From IMG/VR virus record IMGVR_UViG_3300031847_000001: DNA of 20,000 nucleotides; one strand, written 5' to 3'. Made by a program: the position numbers and the translations under genes. The notes beneath the pieces are model-generated. The model saw only the letters and a list, made by a program, of their open reading frames with translations, had not been told where the DNA came from and did no database searches. Below are positions 4,935 to 19,622 of this stretch, piece after piece. The stretch comes from an uncultured virus (IMG/VR IMGVR_UViG_3300031847_000001). Taxonomy: Duplodnaviria; Heunggongvirae; Uroviricota; Caudoviricetes. Positions within the stretch are counted from its first letter, which is position 1. Every line of letters starts with the position of its first letter.

Positions 4935-4977
4935 TTTCCAGCCGCCGCCATGCCCAGTCGCGTGTGCGTGGGGCCAT
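4935..4977 (-). repeat. 43-nt intergenic direct repeat, copy A
   Basis: 41/43 identical to 6460-6502; followed by AAAGGAGAATATGA (RBS plus start). Confidence 0.9.
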
Positions 4978-5420
4978 TACGCCGCCTCCCACAATGTCTT
5001 CTGTACAGTTGGCGCTTTGTCTACTCTCGGCCGACTCGGTTTATTCCACGACCCGCCCCCGGCAAGCCCGACCTCTTTCCACCCCGCAGCTCGCAGAGAC
5101 GCGCCGCCTTCATCCGGCAGTGTGTAGGACACCATTCGCCTATAGCCCAACGCCTTCGCCGCTCGCCACGCCGCAGCCCATAGCTTGCTCGCCGCGTTCG
5201 GGTGTCCTTCAATGACGCAAAGCCGCGTCACTTCCAGCGTCCAGCCGTTATCGAAATGGCGCGACACCGGACGGCCAACGATGGCGACTCCGACGATGTT
5301 TTCACCGTCGTTCACCGCGACACCGAATTTCCATCCCTGACTTGGCGGGTGATGTCGGTGATGCTTGCGAATGAACTCGCATGCCTCGTCCCATTCAATT
5401 GGCTGTAGTTGCAGTGTCAT
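4977..5420 (-). CDS. XF1762-family / Mom-like GNAT-fold DNA-modification protein
   Basis: HHRHH, VGVAIVGRPVSR, TLEVTRLC, SYTLPDEGGASLRAAGW motifs. Start reassigned to ATG 5420, which overlaps the upstream TGA. Confidence 0.8.
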   Translation of the reverse strand: MTLQLQPIEWDEACEFIRKHHRHHPPSQGWKFGVAVNDGENIVGVAIVGRPVSRHFDNGWTLEVTRLCVIEGHPNAASKLWAAAWRAAKALGYRRMVSYTLPDEGGASLRAAGWKEVGLAGGGSWNKPSRPRVDKAPTVQKTLWEAA

Positions 5421-5629
5421 CTTCCCTCGATGATTGCGTCTTCCGTCTCCCATAGCTCGTCGTAAATCTCAAAGTTCGCGTAATACCCGTATGCGAGCCG
5501 AAACTTTTCACATTTTCCTTGAGGCATCGGCGCGCCGTGGCCAAGCCCGTTCAGATTGCACGCGCCGCCTTCGGGATGTTCCTTGCGATAGTCGCCGCAG
5601 TGACAAATATCTTCAGGATGTTCTTTCAC
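5417..5629 (-). CDS. Small Zn-binding hypothetical protein
   Basis: GTG start after GAGGGAG; CHCGD..H...C...C..F motif. Confidence 0.6.
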   Translation of the reverse strand: MKEHPEDICHCGDYRKEHPEGGACNLNGLGHGAPMPQGKCEKFRLAYGYYANFEIYDELWETEDAIIEGR

Positions 5630-9480: not shown

Positions 9481-9981
9481 TTACCTGCTGGCCACTTGCG
9501 CCAGGATTTCTACATATCCCTTAACCTCCGACGTCGCCGGCGCGTCAAACAGCGCCTTGACCCCACGCCGGCGCATCAACCGATGCACTTTTTCCTGATA
9601 TGTCCCATATCCAAATTCCCTTATAAACATCATCCGCGCTCGCTTCTTCTGAATCGGCGTCGCGCGCAAGATGGCGTCGCTGGGCTCGATGGGGGCGCCA
9701 GGCTCGACGTAATCGCGCTCGCTGGCGTGGATGAGGGCGCGAATGATGATGCCGGGACGCCACTCCTTTGAGCCGGGCTTGTTGCGGTACTGGTACCACC
9801 AGAGGGCAGTCCAGATGTTGACCTTGTTCAGACCGTAAACCTCAGACCAGAGCCGATCTGCGCGTGGCCAAAACTGCATGGCCGCCACCCATTCATCAGG
9901 GGTCCAAACGCCTTCAATCTGGACTTGCGCGAGGTAGGCGCGGACGGTGGCGAGTTGCTGTTTGGTGAATTCAGTTTGCAT
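9481..9981 (-). CDS. Hypothetical protein
   Basis: 166-aa ORF overlapping the end of the MTase gene. Confidence 0.7.
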   Translation of the reverse strand: MQTEFTKQQLATVRAYLAQVQIEGVWTPDEWVAAMQFWPRADRLWSEVYGLNKVNIWTALWWYQYRNKPGSKEWRPGIIIRALIHASERDYVEPGAPIEPSDAILRATPIQKKRARMMFIREFGYGTYQEKVHRLMRRRGVKALFDAPATSEVKGYVEILAQVASR

Positions 9982-11176
9982 TGCTTTCGAAATGGTTGAT
10001 CATTCGGCCTAAGACTTCCGCGCATTGCGGAACAACGGCATTACCCAAAGCCTTCAGCGCGGCCACTCGACGCCTTCCAGCCAATCGGGCGGAAACCCCA
10101 TTAATTGAGCCACCCACTTGTGATTGAGCCTCAATGACGCGCGGTTCTTCCCATTCGCGCTGGGGTTCTCCGGGTCGTGCCGGCCAACTTGCTCGGACAA
10201 TGGGCGCGAGTTCTTCGAGTATGTCGCCTCGCTCGCGTGAATGCTCTTGTGATCGCGCGCCGTTGGGGTTGCCCAGGGCAACCCCTGAACTACGGCGGTC
10301 TGAAGATTCAGACCGCCGTCCCTTCCCTGGTGGCCCGCCCCCGTTGAGCAATTCGCATGTGGCGTCGGCCACTGCTTCACCGCGAAATTCAGATCCACCT
10401 GGCGCTTCTTCCCGTCCGGCGTTTGACCTGTCAGATCCATTCCGCCCTTGGGTTGCCGTCCGCCGCTCGGAAGGGTCGGGGTTGGCCACATCTGAACCGC
10501 AGACGGCAGCATCAAGTCGCCCTTGCTGCCCCGCTGATTCGGCCCACCCTTTGAGCCGTCCGTTGCTCGTGGTGATGGCCAGGCCATCACCACGCCTTTC
10601 AAGTTCGTGCCGTGTTTGCCGCTCCGTTCGTGATTCGTCGGCGCTGTCGCGTTCTGTCCGCCCGTGCTGGCCGTGACGCATGGCCACGAACCACACTCGC
10701 TCTCTTCTATGCGGCGCGCCAACGTCCTCAGCAGCCAGTTCGATGGGCAGGAGGTCGTAACCTCGATTCGCAAACTCACGCGCAATCCACTGGCTGAATT
10801 CCACTCCCTCAACGTCAATGCTAAGGACTCCGCGAGGGTTCTCGGCCAACACCCACATGGGACTGATTTCAGACACCAGGCGCAAAAAGTGAGGCCAGAG
10901 CCAGCGATCATCGGCGGCGCCTCGTCGTTGTCCGGCAACGCTGCTTGGCTGGCAGGGCGGGCCTCCGACGAGTGCGTCAATTCGTCCGCAGTGATCAGAA
11001 ACAAGTTGCCCTGTGAGTGTTTTGACATCGTTCCATCTCCAAATCTCCGGCCAGTGTTTTTCAAGTACGGCATTGCAAAATGGCTCAAGTTCGCATTGAC
11101 CAACGCATTGCCAATTCGCCCTTTCGAGTCCCAGATCAAAACCGCCGATCCCGCTGAATGTGCTGAAAAATCTCAT
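9971..11176 (-). CDS. DNA (cytosine-5) methyltransferase, alpha polypeptide
   Basis: Motif I FSGIGG, motif IV GGPPCQ, motif VI ENP, motif VIII PHRRERVWFVA, motif X ALGNAVVPQ. No motif IX in this frame. Confidence 0.92.
   Translation of the reverse strand: MRFFSTFSGIGGFDLGLERANWQCVGQCELEPFCNAVLEKHWPEIWRWNDVKTLTGQLVSDHCGRIDALVGGPPCQPSSVAGQRRGAADDRWLWPHFLRLVSEISPMWVLAENPRGVLSIDVEGVEFSQWIAREFANRGYDLLPIELAAEDVGAPHRRERVWFVAMRHGQHGRTERDSADESRTERQTRHELERRGDGLAITTSNGRLKGWAESAGQQGRLDAAVCGSDVANPDPSERRTATQGRNGSDRSNAGREEAPGGSEFRGEAVADATCELLNGGGPPGKGRRSESSDRRSSGVALGNPNGARSQEHSRERGDILEELAPIVRASWPARPGEPQREWEEPRVIEAQSQVGGSINGVSARLAGRRRVAALKALGNAVVPQCAEVLGRMINHFESNAN
10054..11028 (-). CDS. Overlapping-frame beta polypeptide of the C5 MTase (WPTP repeats + motif IX-like segment)
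   Basis: Alternative frame open over 1 kb inside the MTase. GGAG RBS before ATG 11028. Five W(P/A)(T/S/C)(P/V) repeats; ends LNHKWVAQLMGFPPDWL. Confidence 0.75.
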   Translation of the reverse strand: MSKHSQGNLFLITADELTHSSEARPASQAALPDNDEAPPMIAGSGLTFCAWCLKSVPCGCWPRTLAESLALTLREWNSASGLRVSLRIEVTTSCPSNWLLRTLARRIEESECGSWPCVTASTGGQNATAPTNHERSGKHGTNLKGVVMAWPSPRATDGSKGGPNQRGSKGDLMLPSAVQMWPTPTLPSGGRQPKGGMDLTGQTPDGKKRQVDLNFAVKQWPTPHANCSTGAGHQGRDGGLNLQTAVVQGLPWATPTARDHKSIHASEATYSKNSRPLSEQVGRHDPENPSANGKNRASLRLNHKWVAQLMGFPPDWLEGVEWPR

Positions 11177-11549: not shown

Positions 11550-11610
11550 CGTGTAACATCGAATGAGGCTACATTATAGGGGACAAAAATAGAGCGTCAA
11601 GCGTTTTCTT
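11550..11610 (-). promoter_or_regulatory. Sigma70-like promoter with downstream operator
   Basis: AAGAAAACGC-TTGACG-16nt-TATAAT, followed by CCTCATTCGATG-TTACACG. Confidence 0.75.
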
Positions 11611-12082
11611 ATTGCACCCCCAAAATATGACGCTGCGCGATCATTCCATTGTCCAGATAGGCCTCAATGACCATCTTGGCGCTTTCCCATCCCACGCAGA
11701 CGCAGGCGTAATAACCCTGGGCGGTGAGATCCTTGATCCATTTGCCTTGTGAGTCGCTTGGCTTCCCGCCAGGCGCCTTGAGTTCGATGTACAAACCGTG
11801 AAACCTACCGCGCGCAACTGGCATGCAAATATCTGGTACGCCAGCCTTGACGCCTTCGGCTTTAAGTTTGCCAGCCGTCGCCTTGTTGCGTTTGCCACCG
11901 TTGGGGATCGCGAACAAAAGCGCGAGTTCGGGGACTCTCTTTTCTCGCATCCTTGCCCACTTGAAAAGCGCGACCTGCTCCTGGTGTTCCCTGTCGGATG
12001 ACGGCTTTCTTTTCGGTTTCAGATCGGCGGCGGTAAGTCGCCGCCAATTAGGTTCATCCTGGCTTTTAATTACTATTGGCAT
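11609..12082 (-). CDS. VRR-NUC domain nuclease
   Basis: EHQEQ...FAIPNGGKR...GVKAGVPD...LYIELK...Q..W PD-(D/E)xK pattern. Start reassigned to ATG 12082 after GAGGG. Confidence 0.9.
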   Translation of the reverse strand: MPIVIKSQDEPNWRRLTAADLKPKRKPSSDREHQEQVALFKWARMREKRVPELALLFAIPNGGKRNKATAGKLKAEGVKAGVPDICMPVARGRFHGLYIELKAPGGKPSDSQGKWIKDLTAQGYYACVCVGWESAKMVIEAYLDNGMIAQRHILGVQ

Positions 12083-12458
12083 GTTCCCTCTCGTCTTCGG
12101 TGATGTTGGCGCGTTCCGCATCCGCTTTCTGCATGGAAATAATCAGATTCTCGAAATCTGTCGCCCTCTGTTCTTTCGTCGAGAGAACATCAAATAAACC
12201 GATCATTGCGCACATACCCTCCGGGCTGAGATTAAAAGTGATTGAATCCCTTCCCTTCGGGTTCTCCGGGTTGATAAAGTTGCAATGCCAGATTCTCTCG
12301 AAGTGAGCCACTAAGAGAATCCGGCCGCCGCTGAGCAATATATTGCCGCAGTGATGAAACCTGCCGTAAAACTCTTCCATCTTCTCGACCCAGCCCAGCA
12401 TTTCTGGAAATTCTTCGAGAAATTCCTCGCGCGTTTTGCCTTTCTTCTCTATTTTCAT
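12066..12458 (-). CDS. Hypothetical protein
   Basis: 130-aa ORF, packed in the operon. Confidence 0.65.
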   Translation of the reverse strand: MKIEKKGKTREEFLEEFPEMLGWVEKMEEFYGRFHHCGNILLSGGRILLVAHFERIWHCNFINPENPKGRDSITFNLSPEGMCAMIGLFDVLSTKEQRATDFENLIISMQKADAERANITEDEREHANSN

Positions 12459-12940: not shown

Positions 12941-14137
12941 CTAAAGGCTAAAAAGCGTCGCCTCTTCCTCTTTGACCAACGGCAAAAACAGATCGCCGTA
13001 AGCCTGGCGCTCGGCCTCGAGCAAACGCGTTTCAGCGCTCAAGCAGTCCTTCGGGTTCACCTCAATCCCGACATACTCGCGCCCCAACTTGAGCGCGGCT
13101 TCACCAGTCGTTCCCGTGCCGGAAAAGGGATCAAGCACAACGCAGGGCACAGGGTCGCCGATAGCACAGCCACAAGACGGACCCCAGCCCTTCGTAAGGG
13201 TCTGAACTGTTCGGGGTTGTTGCCCGACGGCAGACAGTCCATTGACCGCCTCGAGCGTTTTGCCCTTAGCGAACGAGCTGCCGTTGAAACTCTTTGGCTC
13301 GCCCTTCACCCTCTCGATGATTCGCACATAAGGCCGGCCGCACACGGAGCAGCATCCGCGCTCGCTTGTGCCTGCCTGAATACAAACAGTCGGAAGCGCT
13401 GACGGGAAAGCGGCGTAATGGAGTGCGGGATTTGGCTCCGACGGTATGGACCAGACCGCGCGCAGGTTGCGCATTTCGGGGTAATAGCGCCCATTCGTTT
13501 CCATATAGGCGCTGAGCCGTTCGCCGGCTGAGCTATTGCCGTCGCCCTTTCGTGGGTTTGTTTTTACCGTCAGAGTCTTTGGTGAGCATGGTTGCTTCAC
13601 CGCCTCGGCGTCGTAGTAGTAATGTGGGCGCTGAGTGAAAAGAAAAACCTTCTCGTAGTCATTCGAGGGCCGATCTCGAACGCTCTCGGGCTTTTTCGTC
13701 GGGTTGTGCCAGATGATTTCGCTGCGGAGAATCCAGCCATCATCCTGCATCGCGATCGCGAACCGGGCCGGGATCATCATCAGGCTCTTCGGCGGGAGTC
13801 CTGTGCGGCGCTTCGTGCGTTGACCCTGGTATCCGCCGGCGGCGCTATCTGCATTCTTGTTGCCCGATTTGCCGCCCCACTTCGTATCGTTCGCGTAAGT
13901 GTCGCCAAGGTTTACCCATAAGGTTCCGTCTAGCCTGAGCACGCGCCGGATCTCGCCGAAGACCTTGACCAGTTTGGCAATAAATTCTCCAGGCGTCGCT
14001 TCAAGCCCGATCTGACCATCAATGCCATAATCCCGCTGCCAAAGGTACGGTGGCGAGGTCACGACGCAATGAACCGACGCGTCTGGCAGCCGGCGCAGCC
14101 CTTCGATTACGTCCGCATTGATGATCTGAAAGTTCAT
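12941..14137 (-). CDS. Site-specific DNA amino-methyltransferase (beta class, N4C/N6A)
   Basis: Catalytic TSPPY precedes SAM-binding LDPFSGTGTT. HYAAFP and a CCSVC...SCGC insertion are also present. Confidence 0.92.
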   Translation of the reverse strand: MNFQIINADVIEGLRRLPDASVHCVVTSPPYLWQRDYGIDGQIGLEATPGEFIAKLVKVFGEIRRVLRLDGTLWVNLGDTYANDTKWGGKSGNKNADSAAGGYQGQRTKRRTGLPPKSLMMIPARFAIAMQDDGWILRSEIIWHNPTKKPESVRDRPSNDYEKVFLFTQRPHYYYDAEAVKQPCSPKTLTVKTNPRKGDGNSSAGERLSAYMETNGRYYPEMRNLRAVWSIPSEPNPALHYAAFPSALPTVCIQAGTSERGCCSVCGRPYVRIIERVKGEPKSFNGSSFAKGKTLEAVNGLSAVGQQPRTVQTLTKGWGPSCGCAIGDPVPCVVLDPFSGTGTTGEAALKLGREYVGIEVNPKDCLSAETRLLEAERQAYGDLFLPLVKEEEATLFSL

Positions 14138-14141
14138 TCGC

Positions 14142-14753
14142 TTAACCTAAAGTGATAATCTCCACCTTTTTGCATTCCTTCGGCTCCGGCTCGAACAGAT
14201 ACGCATTCTGCTCAAACACCACCGCGACGATGCGATCCGAGTTCCGAAAGCCGTCCTCGTCGTACAGTTTCCCCACCTGATAGACGCCCCAGACATCGCC
14301 GTTCGTGCTACGCTCGCACGCGCGCACAATGGCGTCGTTGAGAACCGTGAATCTCTCGTTCGAGTCGCCGCCGTGCCAGCCGTCGAGAAGCGTGCCGTTG
14401 TAGAACTCGCGTTCGTAGTCTTCGTCGCATTCGAAGGGAAAGGCGGTTGACTGGGAGGTTTCGGTGATACTCTCGGCAGTCATCCCGGTTTGCATCCGCA
14501 GGGATGTTTCCGCGTCGAACGGTTCGACTGTGAATTCGTCGGCCTTGTGTGGGTTGGCGCATCTATCGGAGCAAAGAAAGTCGAGATAGCCTTGCGTCTC
14601 TTCCTGTGACATAAACCTATAAAATCCCTGCTCCGGTTGCTCGCTCATGGGATGCCAGAATCCGAGCCCCAGAAATTCACCTTGAAATACGCCCCATTCT
14701 TTGTGGCGCAGCTGATAGCCTTCGATTGCCTTATCTGCATATGCGGACGTCAT
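14142..14753 (-). CDS. Hypothetical protein
   Basis: Start probably ATG 14753 (MTSAYADK) after AAGGA. Confidence 0.7.
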   Translation of the reverse strand: MTSAYADKAIEGYQLRHKEWGVFQGEFLGLGFWHPMSEQPEQGFYRFMSQEETQGYLDFLCSDRCANPHKADEFTVEPFDAETSLRMQTGMTAESITETSQSTAFPFECDEDYEREFYNGTLLDGWHGGDSNERFTVLNDAIVRACERSTNGDVWGVYQVGKLYDEDGFRNSDRIVAVVFEQNAYLFEPEPKECKKVEIITLG

Positions 14754-14997
14754 ATTGCTTTTCCTTTCTAGGCTTCTGTTGTCTCTGGTCGCGCTTGGCC
14801 AAGTATTCCGCGCGTTGCTTGTTGCTCTCCCGCCAGCGCCTTCTCTGCTCGAGTCGAAGCGGGCAAACTGGATCTTCCACCCCCACGCAGTCGTCGAGCG
14901 CGCAACACAGGCATATCGGATCACGCTCGACGACTTTCATGCTGATGTTCACCAGATCACCAGCGCGCAGGGAAATTGATTCGCAAAGTTTGGGCAT
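14731..14997 (-). CDS. Cys-containing basic hypothetical protein
   Basis: ICLCCALDDC...CPL followed by an Arg-rich helix. Start uncertain. Confidence 0.5.
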   Translation of the reverse strand: MPKLCESISLRAGDLVNISMKVVERDPICLCCALDDCVGVEDPVCPLRLEQRRRWRESNKQRAEYLAKRDQRQQKPRKEKQYDVRICR

Positions 14998-15443
14998 TTG
15001 AATCTGTTCGACATCGCCAGGGCGGGCGATTTTGAGCAACCAAAACCAGCGCTCGCCCCGGCGCTTTGGCCAGTTTTTGAGACCGGCCAAACTTAAAATT
15101 GGCGGCGCGGAGGCGCTTCCGGGCTTTACGCGGTTGCTGCCTTTGGCCAGTCCCTCCACTGCCGCCAAGGTGTTTTGGCCGCCGGCGGGTTCTCCCGCTC
15201 GCGCCGCTCATAGGGATTCATCCGGTATAGAGAGTCTGCCCTTTCGGGTAGAGTTCAATCGCACGGAACAGGTTCCCAACGGCGGGAAGTGCTAAAAAGC
15301 CTCCGCAGCCAAACTTGGAAGGGAGCAATACGCCCCGGTCGCAGCCGTTCCCATGAACCGGAAAACCGCTCTGGCCATTCGGCGCGGACTTTAATTCTTT
15401 TCCGCGAGGGCGTCCGTTTTGCTGTGGCTCGCTCCCTATAACT

Positions 15444-15479
15444 GTTCAAAGATCATTGCCGGTCTCTCCCGGCTGTCAC
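15444..15479 (-). promoter_or_regulatory. Hairpin + boxA-like element (nut-like), copy 2
   Basis: GTGACA-GCCGG-GAGAGA-CCGGC-AAT-GATCTTTGAACA. Confidence 0.6.
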
Positions 15480-15605
15480 GCGAACGGTTGTCGGCTACTG
15501 GCAGGACATCGCGTATCTGCTCTTCGCCCCGTGCCGACTTGAGCGCACGCTATTTCGACGTTACGTGCGGGATGTCGCGCCATTGCTGGCGGGCCGAATC
15601 ATCGA

Positions 15606-15641
15606 GCTTGAAAAGATCGTTGCCGTCTTTCCGGCTGTCAC
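15606..15641 (-). promoter_or_regulatory. Hairpin + boxA-like element (nut-like), copy 1
   Basis: GTGACA-GCCG-GAAAGA-CGGC-AAC-GATCTTTTCAAG. Confidence 0.55.
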
Positions 15642-15838
15642 AGGTGCTCTTCCCTGTCGTCAAGACTGCTTATCCTTGTTTGGTGTAGGAGCATGAAAGC
15701 AGTCGCGAAACGTCGCCCCTAGATTGCTGGCGAGTCGCACCCTTTCTTTTAGGGTCTATTGAATCCCCTGGCCGCGTTTCGTTTCCTCGAACCGGAAGGC
15801 TTGCACGGCATTGCGACTCGCCAAGTTGTAGAATATCG

Positions 15839-15863
15839 CGTGTAACCTCGTTTGAGGCTGCAA
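15839..15863 (-). promoter_or_regulatory. Operator-like palindrome CCTC-AAAC-GAGG + TTACACG
   Basis: Same motif as at 859-870, 11557-11568 and 16189-16200. Confidence 0.65.
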
Positions 15864-15877
15864 GACTGAACAAAAAA

Positions 15878-16165
15878 TTAGTACAGATACTGATTCCACG
15901 TTGCGCTCGCCAGCGTCACAAACCGACGCCAACCGAGATCCGGGAAGAATGCGTAGTTGCCGATGATGCGCGTTGAGCAAGAGATTGATTGACGTCGCAC
16001 TGCGGCTACGACCGGAAGGTCGTTCAGTCCGTTGATCTCAACGATCTGGGCGCCGCAGGACTGGCAGTCGCAATCGTTGCGATGTTTGAATTGGAATTTG
16101 GCCTCACAGTTAAGGCAGAGGATCGAATCTCGAAGATTTTGTTTTTGGCATTCGGCACAGTTCAT
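15878..16165 (-). CDS. Multi-CxxC hypothetical protein
   Basis: GGAG RBS; first ORF after promoter 16206-16233. Confidence 0.65.
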   Translation of the reverse strand: MNCAECQKQNLRDSILCLNCEAKFQFKHRNDCDCQSCGAQIVEINGLNDLPVVAAVRRQSISCSTRIIGNYAFFPDLGWRRFVTLASATWNQYLY

Positions 16166-16181
16166 AAAGTGGCTCCGTATT

Positions 16182-16243
16182 CGTGTAACATCAAACGATG
16201 CGCTGAGTATACTCTCACTTTACACAGCGTCAAGCGTTTTCTT
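16182..16243 (-). promoter_or_regulatory. Sigma70-like promoter with downstream operator
   Basis: AAGAAAACGC-TTGACG-16nt-TATACT, followed by CATCGTTTGATG-TTACACG. Confidence 0.75.
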
Positions 16244-16805
16244 CTGTCTCGTTGGAAATATTCTCTTCACCCTTCGGTGGATGCTTTTCGAGCCAGTTTT
16301 TTGCGTTTGTAATCATTGCCAAGGCGTTGCCAGCGGGGAACATCTGCATGGCCTGATCCGGTGAAACAGTGGAGATGTGATCAACTTTGAAGAGCCGGCG
16401 CAGGGCCTCCCGCGCTCGGTCCTTGAGCGGCTTCTCCAGGATGTCTGGATTTGCGTCAATTACGGCCTGGATCGTTTCTTTTACCCCGGCGCAGTGCTGG
16501 AAGTGGTCCACGTACAAAAGGCGGCTCCAGAAGTGATTCCAGGGGCCAGCGGGTTGCTTTGGCGGCTTCTTCTGCCTCGGTGCTTTCTTTTCTGGAATGA
16601 TTCCGATCTCGGTTATCCAGAAAACCATCTCGCCCATTGCGGTTCGCGGGACCGTCTTCATCCAGCCCCATGTCTCTTCGTCGATCTCCAGTTCGAGGAA
16701 ATGGAACATTTCGCCTTTCTCGTTTTCCTTCGTCCGGATGCGGCGATTGTTCCAAGACAGTTCGATCGGTTGGTTTATTTGGGCTATGCCGTCTTTGTCG
16801 CTCAT
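16230..16805 (-). CDS. Hypothetical protein
   Basis: Start reassigned to ATG 16805 (MSDKDG), with GGAGG upstream and an ATGA overlap. Confidence 0.7.
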   Translation of the reverse strand: MSDKDGIAQINQPIELSWNNRRIRTKENEKGEMFHFLELEIDEETWGWMKTVPRTAMGEMVFWITEIGIIPEKKAPRQKKPPKQPAGPWNHFWSRLLYVDHFQHCAGVKETIQAVIDANPDILEKPLKDRAREALRRLFKVDHISTVSPDQAMQMFPAGNALAMITNAKNWLEKHPPKGEENISNETEENA

Positions 16806-17313: not shown

Positions 17314-18687
17314 TCACTGCGCTAGTTGCGTGTACACATCTTCAAACCTCATCACTTGCTTCAGGAAGACAATCTCGATCGTGCAAAGCGGCCCGTTGCG
17401 ATTCTTGAGTAGGATGAGTTCGGCGATGTTCTGTTTGTCCGTGTTTGGGTTGTAAACCTCATCCCGGTAGAGGCCGATGAGTAAATACGCGTCTTGCGCT
17501 ATCTGGCCAGAGTCTCGAAAGTCTGAGAGCATTGGCCGCTTGTTTTGTCGGTGTTCGAGCTCGCGGTTGAGCTGCGAGAGCGCTATCACAACGCAGTTGT
17601 AATCCTTGGCGATTTGCACCAAGCCGCGGCTTATCTTCGCGACCTCGGCCTCGCGCGTCTCGCCCTTCTGCCGTTCGCCGTCGCTGAGCTGTAGATAGTC
17701 CACGAAGAGAATATCCACCCGCCCCTCGTCGTTCTTCATCTTCCGCACGGCCTCGCGCATCTTGCGAGGCGACAGCGCGGCGCGATCGTCGAAGTGTACG
17801 CGCCAGCCGGCCAGGATGTTCGTCGCCTCGGCCACGCGGCGCCATTCGTCCTTGCTCAAGTAACCAGTACGCAGCCGCTTCAGATCCATACGCGCAAGGC
17901 TGGACAGAAGGCGCTGCGCTTGCTGTTTCGTCGGCATTTCCATCGAGAACCAGCCGATAACCGGCGGCCGGCCGTCAATGAAGTTATCCGGACACTGGGA
18001 CATATGCGTCGTCATCGAGAGCGCGAGCCCAGTCTTGCCCATCCCCGGCGCCGCGCCGATCACAACCACCGTGCCGCGCTCAAGTCCGTCCGTCACGTAA
18101 TCCAGATCCCGAAAGCCCGTTGAGAAGTCCAGTACGCTGCGGTTTGAATCGCCGCGCGCCTCGGCCTCTGTCATCACGTCGAAGGCCACGCCGGCGATGT
18201 CGCGCCAGTGTCCTTCGCCGCAGTTGGCGCCGATGAGCGCTAGATCCTGCTCGGCCTGGCGCAATTGCTCGTCAATCGTCTCTTCGCCGTCAAAGGCGCG
18301 CGCCGTGACTGAGGCGCCGAAGTGAATCAGCCGGCGTTCCCGCGAACTGTCTTTCACGAGCCGCACGTAGTTTTCGATGTTTGAGAATCGCGGTACGCCG
18401 TCGAAGAGCGACGCGATGTAGGCCGGGCCGCCGACTCGCTCGAGGTTGCCAGCCCGCCGCAGTTCTTCCTGCAGGGTAAGCGGATCAATGGCCTCACCGC
18501 GACTATGCAGCGCCAGCATCCCGGCGTAGGTGAGACGGTTCGCCATCGAGAAGAAATCATTCTCGTCGAGTACGGACAGCGCTTGCTCAAAAACGCCGTT
18601 GTCGAGAATCCCGCAGCCCAGCACAGTCTGCTCGGCTTCGAGGTTTGTTGGCAGTGGTTTTTCTAAAATCACGTTTGGCTGTCGCAT
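17314..18687 (-). CDS. dnaB: Replicative DNA helicase, DnaB family
   Basis: EAEQTVLG N-domain, Walker A APGMGKT, FSMEM, VDYLQL, ALSQLNR, SDFRDSGQIAQDA, KNRNGP. Confidence 0.96.
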   Translation of the reverse strand: MRQPNVILEKPLPTNLEAEQTVLGCGILDNGVFEQALSVLDENDFFSMANRLTYAGMLALHSRGEAIDPLTLQEELRRAGNLERVGGPAYIASLFDGVPRFSNIENYVRLVKDSSRERRLIHFGASVTARAFDGEETIDEQLRQAEQDLALIGANCGEGHWRDIAGVAFDVMTEAEARGDSNRSVLDFSTGFRDLDYVTDGLERGTVVVIGAAPGMGKTGLALSMTTHMSQCPDNFIDGRPPVIGWFSMEMPTKQQAQRLLSSLARMDLKRLRTGYLSKDEWRRVAEATNILAGWRVHFDDRAALSPRKMREAVRKMKNDEGRVDILFVDYLQLSDGERQKGETREAEVAKISRGLVQIAKDYNCVVIALSQLNRELEHRQNKRPMLSDFRDSGQIAQDAYLLIGLYRDEVYNPNTDKQNIAELILLKNRNGPLCTIEIVFLKQVMRFEDVYTQLAQ

Positions 18688-19622
18688 GTGTCCCCCTTGT
18701 CCTTGAGTTTCGGTTGTCGGTAGTTCGCCGGCGCCGAGACCACCGGCGGCGTTACGTGTGTCCCGTTTCCGTTGGCGGCTGGACTGGCGCGGCCGTTCTC
18801 GCCTATCGGCTTGTTGAACCGATCAATCGCGTGCGGCCAGAACGTCGAGAATCGCTCGCACAGGTCCGCCAGCGTGTGTGTGGCCAGATCGCTCGCGAAG
18901 TAGTGTTCGGCGGCGCGCTTGAAGCGTTCGAGGGTGATTTCCCAGGGTTTGGGTTGCGCCTTCGCGTACTTGTCGCGCAGTTCGGAGAGTTTCACGAAGT
19001 CTGCGGGCTTGTAGGCGTAAGGCTGTCCCTCGTGAGTGGTTTCGAATTGCGAGCAGAACTCGTGGAAAAGCGGATCTGGCTTTCGTCCGGAAGGTTTCTC
19101 TACTGGTGGTTCAGCAGGTTCGGTTAGCGCGCCAGCGCCAGAGATTACGTTAGTAATCTCTGTATTTGTATGTATGTCTGTATGTTTGTTTGGCATAGCA
19201 GTGCTTTGCCGTGCTTTGCGCTGCTTAGCTGTGCTTTGCACTGCTATTTTAGGTTGAGCATCGCTATCCTCTGGCGGCGGTTGCTTTGCTTTGCTTTCGT
19301 TCCCTTTCCATCTCTGGGCGGCTGCATTTGCTTTCTTTTCAGCAAATTCCACGCGTTCCATAATGACGTCCTCGGCGAAGTCGATGTAGAGGCGTCCGCC
19401 TTCACATCTGCCGAGGAATTCGAAATATGGACGTAGGGCCTGGATGTCTTCTATCGGAAGTCCGGTGAGGAATGCGAGTTTGGGGTCGCTGTCTGGTAGT
19501 CCACCATCGTCAAGGTAGGTCACTATCAGCAGCGTCATATCTGCGCGCATTCGTCCAGTCGGTAGACTTGAGACGAGCGAGCGCAGTTTGCTTGGCCAAA
19601 TTTTGAACCAGTTATTGTCCAT
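18669..19622 (-). CDS. Phage replication initiator (YdaU/DUF1376-like N-terminus)
   Basis: Directly upstream of dnaB. LPDSDPKLAFLTG...KKANAAAQRW pattern and an internal repeat-encoded low-complexity linker. Confidence 0.7.
   Translation of the reverse strand: MDNNWFKIWPSKLRSLVSSLPTGRMRADMTLLIVTYLDDGGLPDSDPKLAFLTGLPIEDIQALRPYFEFLGRCEGGRLYIDFAEDVIMERVEFAEKKANAAAQRWKGNESKAKQPPPEDSDAQPKIAVQSTAKQRKARQSTAMPNKHTDIHTNTEITNVISGAGALTEPAEPPVEKPSGRKPDPLFHEFCSQFETTHEGQPYAYKPADFVKLSELRDKYAKAQPKPWEITLERFKRAAEHYFASDLATHTLADLCERFSTFWPHAIDRFNKPIGENGRASPAANGNGTHVTPPVVSAPANYRQPKLKDKGDTCDSQT
19141..19298. repeat. Putative replication origin: iteron-like repeats + AT-rich tract
   Basis: Tandem 10-mers GTGCTTTGCC GTGCTTTGCG CTGCTTAGCT GTGCTTTGCA CTGCTA (19201-19246), TTGCT x3 (about 19282-19296), TGTA-rich tract 19161-19190, and inverted repeat GAGATTAC-gtta-GTAATCTC (19141-19160). 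Confidence 0.65.

Follow-up and report, generated by a model that had tools for sequence, protein, structure and literature searches.

Short conserved non-coding elements in an early-operon gap of an uncultivated soil phage: a possible cassette of small RNAs

What occupies a gap between the genes of a phage's early operon: one large structured RNA, several small ones, or DNA that spreads or acts as such? The question is raised by positions 15001-15877 of a stretch of 20,000 nucleotides (nt), hereafter the window, from the uncultured virus IMGVR_UViG_3300031847_000001 (Caudoviricetes). A first-pass annotation, made from the sequence alone, had described most of this gap as a densely base-paired region of about 800 nt and proposed a single large phage non-coding RNA (ncRNA) or a multi-domain leader. 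Our analyses tentatively favour another view, in which the phage, an uncultivated one from soil, carries in this gap of its early/replication operon a cassette of several short non-coding elements, putatively small RNAs, instead of one large RNA; we would rate this somewhat below an even chance. Discrete folded elements that are conserved in other phages are indeed present in the gap, as had been proposed, and the argument begins with one of them, module C.

A 147-nt element common to three dissimilar phages

Module C (15171-15320, on the minus strand, which is the operon sense) is a discrete element of 147 nt closed by a helix, P1 (UUUGGCYG/CGGCCAAA). Two complete phage genomes with direct terminal repeats also carry it: one of 68,079 nt (G001, with its locus in L007), reached by a 22-mer from the gap, and one of 59,508 nt (G002, locus L006), reached via the DnaB protein, which is 82% identical. 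Both otherwise share almost no DNA with the window, and neither has the gap as a whole. C is 86.4% identical over 147 nt between the window and G001 and 89.9% identical over 148 nt between the window and G002, in both cases the highest-identity DNA that the pair has in common; between G001 and G002 it reaches 88.9%, and none of the 13 other segments that these two have in common, all situated in or near genes, exceeds 83%. Since C is thus more strongly conserved as DNA than any gene common to these three otherwise dissimilar genomes, nearly every base of it appears to be constrained. It is present as well in contigs of runs X3 and X5, two of the four other metagenome runs compared (X2-X5).

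The limits of this conservation coincide with the closing helix. In the three-copy alignment it extends from CAAGUUUGG to CGGCCAAA, the two strands of P1, and the sequence between C and the motif upstream of it (see below) is not alignable across the window, G001 and G002. A covariance model of C finds exactly one copy in each of these three and, besides the known copies, a single partial match of 17.9 bits in L017. Each of the six reading frames of C either has stops in at least one genome or shows 26-30 non-synonymous versus 2-10 synonymous codon differences, and the antisense open frame that runs over C and the tRNA-like element of G002 returned no protein from a set of 5.8 billion. Judged by its sequence, C is a discrete, constrained, non-coding element. 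One 18-mer of C led, apart from G001 and G002, to an exact 21-nt match in L020 (1749-1769), inside an unrelated open reading frame (ORF) that looks by eye like a tape-measure gene; this match and one in L003 (below) are taken as chance because neither extends.

The consensus fold of C is a four-way junction. Besides P1, it comprises a short hairpin, a long arm that ends in a GNRA loop, and a 3' hairpin adjoining the 3' strand of P1. It has 42-44 pairs, nearly all of them invariant. Within P1, one pair is compensatory (C-G in the window, U-A in G001 and G002) and another is U.G versus C-G, which is workable only in the operon sense; the loop of the long arm, GAAA or, in G002, GCAA, stays GNRA in that same sense. 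Over 42 pairs and three sequences, the changes amount to one compensatory, one half change and three broken pairs. C has the orientation of its flanking genes in all three genomes. In G001 and G002 it lies upstream of a homologous helix-turn-helix (HTH) gene of 137-138 amino acids (aa), and the next gene after C, at a distance of 170 to 1100 nt, is a different one in the window. A role as leader of one particular downstream gene, also part of the initial proposal, is therefore unlikely.

In G001, C is followed by an ORF-poor stretch of about 850 nt (31128-31980; about 1647-2500 in L007). At the downstream edge of this stretch and running into the next ORF, the opposite strand (L007 2383-2542) has a sub-threshold Rfam match to the alphaproteobacterial small RNA (sRNA) ar7, with 27.6 bits against a gathering score of 60 and an E-value of 0.017.

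A recurring hairpin motif and a tRNA-like neighbour

Two 36-nt units, at 15641-15606 and 15479-15444 in the operon sense, bracket another conserved piece, module B. Both consist of GTGACA, a GC hairpin with a purine loop and GATCTTT(T)SAA: in R2 (15606-15641, minus strand; repeat D6) the hairpin is GCCG-GAAAGA-CGGC, followed by GATCTTTTCAAG, and in R1 (15444-15479, minus strand) it is GCCGG-GAGAGA-CCGGC, followed by GATCTTTGAAC. The core of the motif, GATCTTT(T)[CG]AA (10-11 nt), is enriched: the window, G001 and G002 have two copies each, all on the operon strand, where 0.04-0.15 would be expected (2 versus 0.04 in the window). In each of the three genomes one of the copies precedes C, at distances of 134, 135 and 195 nt. 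By eye, five of the six copies have a hairpin before the core, the exception being the G002 copy at 48579, and the 30-nt flank beside B in run X4 has a hairpin of different stem sequence and then GATCT. In two copies the TGA within the motif is the stop codon of the upstream ORF. A consensus scan flagged R1 as both promoter-like and terminator-like, and terminator-like sites in total number 5, against 2.9 +/- 1.8 in shuffled sequences. A terminator or a processing signal is our preferred, though weakly held, reading of the motif.

In G002, a 182-nt element (47501-47320, minus strand, in L006) starts 5 nt after the motif. Its ends are tRNA-like: an acceptor-like terminal helix of 7 base pairs (bp), CGGACUG/CAGUCUG, with one G.U pair; a D-arm-like stretch containing GG; and a hairpin, GAAGG-UUCGAUU-CCUUC, that abuts the 3' strand of the terminal helix and is followed by ACCA, directly after which C begins. 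About 110 nt, however, stand where the anticodon arm should be. An Rfam search of the element gave no match. A homologue of it, with a frame change relative to G002, is found joined directly to B: the C-terminal half of a database protein, P0005 (see below), is the antisense reading of this homologue.

Small RNAs, mobile DNA or cis-acting sites

For the modules of the gap we infer transcription, its strand, processing and a function as RNA, which might be connected as follows. Along the operon strand, self-closed modules would follow one another as H (96 nt), A, B (143 nt), L (116 nt) and C (147 nt), with a signal recurring between modules, a hairpin and then GAUCUUU(U)SAA. The region would be transcribed together with the operon, and termination or processing would take place at the punctuation signals; where a relative has a tRNA-like element directly joined to a module, tRNA-processing enzymes would cut. 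The modules would thereby be set free as small structured RNAs, stable and active in trans, and this would apply to C in particular. The constant orientation of C, its helix-bounded conservation, the GNRA loop that is kept, the U.G pair and the tRNA-like neighbour may all be read as supporting such small RNAs. A bolder version, which we think improbable as a whole, would have C, B, H and the 182-nt tRNA-like element as interchangeable candidate RNA cassettes, shuffled between soil phages and delimited by hairpin-GAUCUUU signals, with tRNA mimicry setting the ends of the neighbouring element and C founding a new family.

Several observations weigh against small RNAs of this kind. The window itself is without a tRNA-like element. 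ARAGORN finds 0 tRNA or transfer-messenger RNA (tmRNA) genes in the window, G001 and G002, and it calls no tRNA for the G002 element even with introns allowed, its tmRNA mode likewise; the apparent tRNA-likeness of that element comes from reading by eye and a minimum-energy fold. The motif would be a poor intrinsic terminator because its U run, 3-11 nt from the stem, is short and interrupted. G001 breaks three of the predicted pairs of C, two of them in the 3' hairpin. The folding energy of C does not pick a strand, with z-scores of -2.66, -0.46 and -1.66 in sense and of -2.75, -1.98 and -2.36 in antisense; the antisense alignment fold is in fact the lower (-53.6 versus -48.8 kcal/mol), and the central hairpin has a conserved A.C mismatch in the operon sense that is a G.U pair on the other strand. 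Covariation in C comes down to one pair, because there are only three full sequences and nearly all pairs are invariant, and the same compensatory change is expected for the terminal inverted repeats of a mobile element. Finally, no excess of folding is seen in module B (z +0.14 and +0.81), the most widely found of the modules.

Two rival explanations are to be taken seriously: DNA that is mobile or spread by recombination, and sites that act in cis. In the first case, the modules would be selfish or recombination-spread non-coding DNA, either akin to miniature inverted-repeat transposable elements (MITEs) or boundary sequences of mosaic genomes, without an RNA function of their own. The ends of C are sharp and form near-perfect terminal inverted repeats (TTTGGCCGTGG / CCAACGGCCAAA) that pair over 9-12 nt, and paired changes at such ends are also to be expected if one transposase binds both repeats. 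C is found on different sides of DnaB (downstream by about 2 kb in the window, upstream by about 6.6 kb in G002), the order of the modules is permuted in run X3, and B, which has no fold, is 98-100% identical between samples while its flanks differ. Yet each of the three genomes has a single copy of C, to which the covariance model adds none, and neither a target-site duplication nor a direct repeat flanking C was seen by eye in the three alignments. Moreover, G001 and G002 share the neighbourhood of C, upstream of the same HTH gene, the orientation of C is always that of the operon, and an identity of 86-90% with evenly spread differences resembles long-term constraint rather than recent spread. 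On balance, we consider spread as DNA rather unlikely.

In the second case, the elements would act in cis, either as RNA that modifies transcription from within the operon transcript, for instance an antiterminator similar to put of phage HK022 or an attenuator system composed of the hairpin-GAUCUUU signals, or as DNA sites for protein binding, priming or an origin beside the replication genes. The gap is located in an early/replication operon, between the DnaB/primosome genes and DNA-modification genes; C is operon-oriented and preceded by a terminator-like motif, and in the window it is followed by further hairpins and a terminator-like site; and the folding excess is equal on both strands, as it would be for DNA hairpins or cruciforms. 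Against this stand the differing gene downstream of C and its variable distance, as well as the 6.6 kb that separate C from DnaB in G002. No AT-rich stretch is found in the gap (GC 0.52-0.60), which beyond R1 and R2 has only short two-copy repeats and no iteron array, and C is conserved in loops and stems alike over 147 nt, beyond what a typical operator needs. We regard action in cis as unlikely.

Module B and the order of the parts

The relatives indicate that the pieces of the gap come apart. Module B (15477-15619, minus strand) is a conserved non-coding piece of 143 nt. Contigs of the soil metagenome runs X4 and X5 carry it with 2 differences and a third soil run, X3, carries it with 4 differences and a 1-nt insertion, always between unlike flanks. 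A 24-kb contig of X3 is arranged as B, 51 nt, C, 86 nt, A, and the window as A, B, 176 nt, C. The pieces thus behave as separate modules, because order and spacing differ in X3 and C stands without the other parts in G001 and G002. Module A (15681-15732, minus strand, 52 nt) follows the same pattern: X3 record 9 has it downstream of C and not before B, in a copy with 4 differences and two 1-nt deletions. Run X2 represents a closer relative through short contigs that cover 14875-15094 (6 differences in 220 nt), 15753-15837 (4 differences) and flanking genes.

Other searches returned no further relatives. Neither blastn of 14900-16000 against phages nor a peptide alignment of B against viral contigs gave a match. 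The 20-23-mers of B had no match in genome contigs and otherwise only unextended ones that we read as chance (L002; L003/L004, in an unrelated ORF), among them the exact 23-nt match at L003 810-832, inside an unrelated ORF.

A small zinc-finger gene, 80% identical between G001 (10654-10877) and G002 (47525-47748), is found just upstream of the motif and C in G002 and about 20 kb from C in G001. This displacement is possibly another sign of module shuffling.

Folding of the gap

All nine stems named in the first-pass annotation are found where it placed them and with the complementarity that it gave, including a perfect 12-bp inverted repeat (15728-15739/15812-15823). Its description of the region as densely base-paired is not borne out as it stands: perfect stems of at least 6 bp number 23, versus 18.5 +/- 4.4 in 60 dinucleotide shuffles, so 6-bp stems are at chance level. 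There are 5 stems of at least 8 bp, versus 1.45 in the shuffles, and a 12-bp stem is found in 0 of the 60 shuffles. The GNRA loops (GCAA, GAAA) lie on the minus strand, as had been said; the accompanying claim that G-U wobbles work only on that strand is right for 15065-15091 and wrong for 15236-15251, where the plus strand has the G.U pair and the minus strand an A.C mismatch.

The region as a whole folds moderately better than shuffled sequence, with a z-score of -2.56 on the minus strand (1 of 80 shuffles as good) and of -3.02 on the plus strand (0 of 80). Since the two values are similar, the excess is not strand-specific, and one coding control does as well. Five coding controls of 766 nt from the same window gave z-scores of -0.21, -0.52, -3.30, +1.01 and +0.14; the third, at 10200-10965 within the gene for the C5 cytosine methylase, folds as far below its shuffles (0 of 32 as good) as the gap does. 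In sliding windows of 160 nt on the minus strand, z is negative at 15000-15320 (-2.0 to -2.7) and at 15720-15879 (-3.3), reaches -1.4 at 15320-15479, and is near zero or positive in the windows starting at 15240, 15400 and 15480. Coding windows of this size reach -3.3 and -4.4.

These results bear on the idea of one structured RNA of about 800 nt, of the size class of GOLLD and ROOL, or of one multi-domain leader, which we consider very improbable. Such an RNA would agree with the folding of the whole region (z -2.6 to -3.0), with the contiguous chain of closed domains, and with the adjacency of B and C both in X3 and in the contig that encodes a second database protein, P0006. However, G001 and G002 have C, at another position, and no other part; order and spacing vary between relatives, as in X3; the middle of the region, with module B, shows no folding excess; no Rfam model matches; and the folding is matched by one of the five coding controls.

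The one clearly unusual fold of the gap is domain H (15728-15823, minus strand), a three-way junction of 96 nt closed by the perfect 12-bp helix, with z-scores of -4.32 (minus strand) and -4.02 (plus strand) that 0 of 200 shuffles equalled, in a test that is biased because the domain was picked for that helix. A 28-mer from H had no match in viral contigs. Linker L (15321-15436, minus strand), 116 nt closed by a 7-bp helix (GGGAGCG/UGCUCCC), has a z-score of -1.18, which is not significant, and no T-arm; its sequence is not conserved in the relatives, and it fills the place that the tRNA-like element has in G002. Two similar hairpins, UUCC-GGUUCRW-GGRAA in the operon sense (repeat D1, 83% identical), lie at 15346-15363 in L and at 15780-15797 in H; by eye, their loops contain UUCA or UUCG as in a T-loop, but out of register.

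Beyond C, the 3' hairpin region (15038-15170, minus strand; z -2.31 and -1.95) comprises a long imperfect hairpin at about 15098-15170, a 10-bp hairpin at 15065-15091 and a weak terminator-like hairpin with a U run at 15065-15038. Probably it either ends the non-coding unit on the 3' side or serves as leader to the gene that follows, which encodes 88 aa.

The gap is non-coding

As far as present data allow, the gap is non-coding. The first-pass annotation had rightly recognised it, although the limits it set, 15060..15825, are too narrow: on the minus strand it extends over about 15001-15877, between a zinc-ribbon ORF of 95 aa (15878-16165, minus strand) and the ORF of 88 aa (14731-15000, minus strand, with its ATG at 15000). 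An ORF at 14731-15168 overlaps its left end; a homologue is known only for the part from the ATG at 15000. The absence of a credible ORF is borne out, since none of at least 90 aa lies wholly within 15060-15825 on either strand. Codon log-likelihoods, trained on the window's own genes, are at most 6 bits per 120 nt over 15150-15870, versus 7-24 bits in the neighbouring genes, and a Pfam/PHROGs search of six ORFs of the gap gave no match. The frame of the 88-aa ORF meets six in-frame stops within the gap (TAA, TAG, TAG, TAA, TAG, TGA); because these are of all three kinds, recoding cannot rescue it, and stop-codon reassignment is ruled out. A frameshifted gene is rejected on the evidence of ORFs and codon scores.

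A plus-strand frame at 15442-15693 is open for 84 codons, and GC 3-periodicity, confined to 15410-15650, fits it. Searched against 5.8 billion and then 1.84 billion proteins, it gave two matches, P0005 and P0006, both cluster singletons. The two read the same DNA, that of module B, in different frames, with a switch near 15515; the near-identical copy of B in run X3 has its 1-nt insertion after 15515, where P0006 switches frame. In answer to the question whether homologues keep a reading frame, none is kept, the conserved parts showing 1-nt indels and no synonymous bias. It is hence scarcely credible that the gap consists of decayed or unrecognised protein-coding genes such as this plus frame, for all its periodicity and the two proteins called over B by the gene finders of others, given that it has no ATG, GTG or TTG before 15565, a codon score of only +1.7 to +4.2 bits, no Pfam/PHROGs family, no tblastn match in phages, two singleton matches in different frames among 1.84 billion representatives and a 1-nt insertion in X3.

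Genomic setting

The window is a phage-type early/replication region. One soil metagenome run, possibly its source, contains its DNA in full, runs X6-X11 contain small shares, and none of the runs listed as containing it is an RNA data set. In operon order, a primosomal-like protein (18669-19622, minus strand) and the DnaB helicase (17314-18687, minus strand) are followed by small ORFs, the last of them the zinc-ribbon ORF that borders the gap. On the other side, the 88-aa ORF precedes an ORF of 203 aa (14142-14753, minus strand) and a cluster of DNA-modification and nuclease genes: an N6/N4 methylase (12941-14137), a VRR-NUC nuclease (11609-12121), the C5 methylase (9971-11176) and a Mom-like protein (4977-5453). 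A search with DnaB found one locus in viral contigs and none in genome contigs. The 95-aa protein had no match in viral contigs. The 203-aa protein had none in viral contigs, none by tblastn in phages and no relative in a metagenome scan; its 3 relatives are known only as proteins on short contigs.

Inside the 88-aa ORF there is a perfect 12-bp inverted repeat (14889-14900/14924-14935) with a 23-nt loop. The 160-nt window that contains it, 14840-14999, has the lowest folding z-score of the scanned region (-4.36, minus strand), and run X2 covers 14889-14935 with one change, at 14923.

Significance and comparison with known systems

To our knowledge, few phage ncRNAs are known outside model phages, and C is a candidate for such an RNA or for a conserved non-coding element. 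Should it prove to be an RNA, it would define a new family; if, in addition, the tRNA-like neighbour and the shared motif belong with it, phage early regions would contain modular ncRNA cassettes. If it is instead mobile or cis-acting DNA, C would be of use in tracing recombination among soil phages. In both cases, the claim of a single structured RNA of 800 nt is to be scaled down.

That the region belongs to no named family is confirmed by Rfam 15, of which no model, those for GOLLD, ROOL, HEARO, tRNA, tmRNA and YrlA included, matches anywhere in the window at its gathering score. A permissive search of 14700-16250 gave two matches at chance level, radC (E 1.1) and H19_2 (E 2.7). The best of them, the radC RNA motif (RF01754; 15121-15256, overlapping C), lies on the plus strand and reaches 17.5 bits where the gathering score is 40, and its identity with C is also ruled out by the lack of such a match in the homologues of C in L006 and L007.

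Our comparison with the literature covered GOLLD/ROOL and tRNA-like phage ncRNAs. In two published accounts, GOLLD and ROOL are presented as single conserved RNAs of several hundred nt with curated Rfam models (10.1101/2024.12.08.627333, PMC5737381). Like them, the gap is non-coding, lies in phage DNA and has many stems; unlike them, it matches no model, and its pieces of about 50-150 nt occur separately and in varied orders, with no unit of at least 500 nt kept whole in a fixed domain order.

The put RNAs of phage HK022 are cis-acting antiterminators of about 70 nt, with two stem-loops close to a promoter. The elements of the gap would resemble them as folded RNAs in an early phage operon and in its orientation, whereas C measures 147 nt and has a predicted four-way junction. 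MITEs and the conserved boundary sequences of mosaic phages are short non-coding units with inverted ends and sharp borders. C shares with these a high identity between otherwise unlike genomes, a variable position and inverted ends; unlike MITEs, it has a single copy per genome, no target duplication that could be seen and a constant orientation.

YrlA RNAs are known in some phages. In a published account, YrlA, a bacterial Y RNA-like molecule, is described as an ncRNA with a tRNA-mimicking end (PMC4201824). By contrast, the elements studied here have no Rfam match, and no Ro60/TROVE gene was found in either of G001 and G002 by a search whose control matched 2 of 14 genomes. Stable RNAs are reportedly encoded in the tRNA cluster of phage T4, and the spacers of Escherichia coli tRNA operons are said to give rise to sRNAs. 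Like these tRNA-precursor RNAs, C of G002 is a small structured candidate RNA that starts right after the ...ACCA of a tRNA-shaped element, and it is this adjacency that suggests that tRNA processing could set its ends; unlike them, the G002 element is no callable tRNA, and the window has none. Although membership in either group is not supported, the nearest functional analogies would be with small stable RNAs linked to tRNA precursors and with tRNA-mimicking Y-like RNAs.

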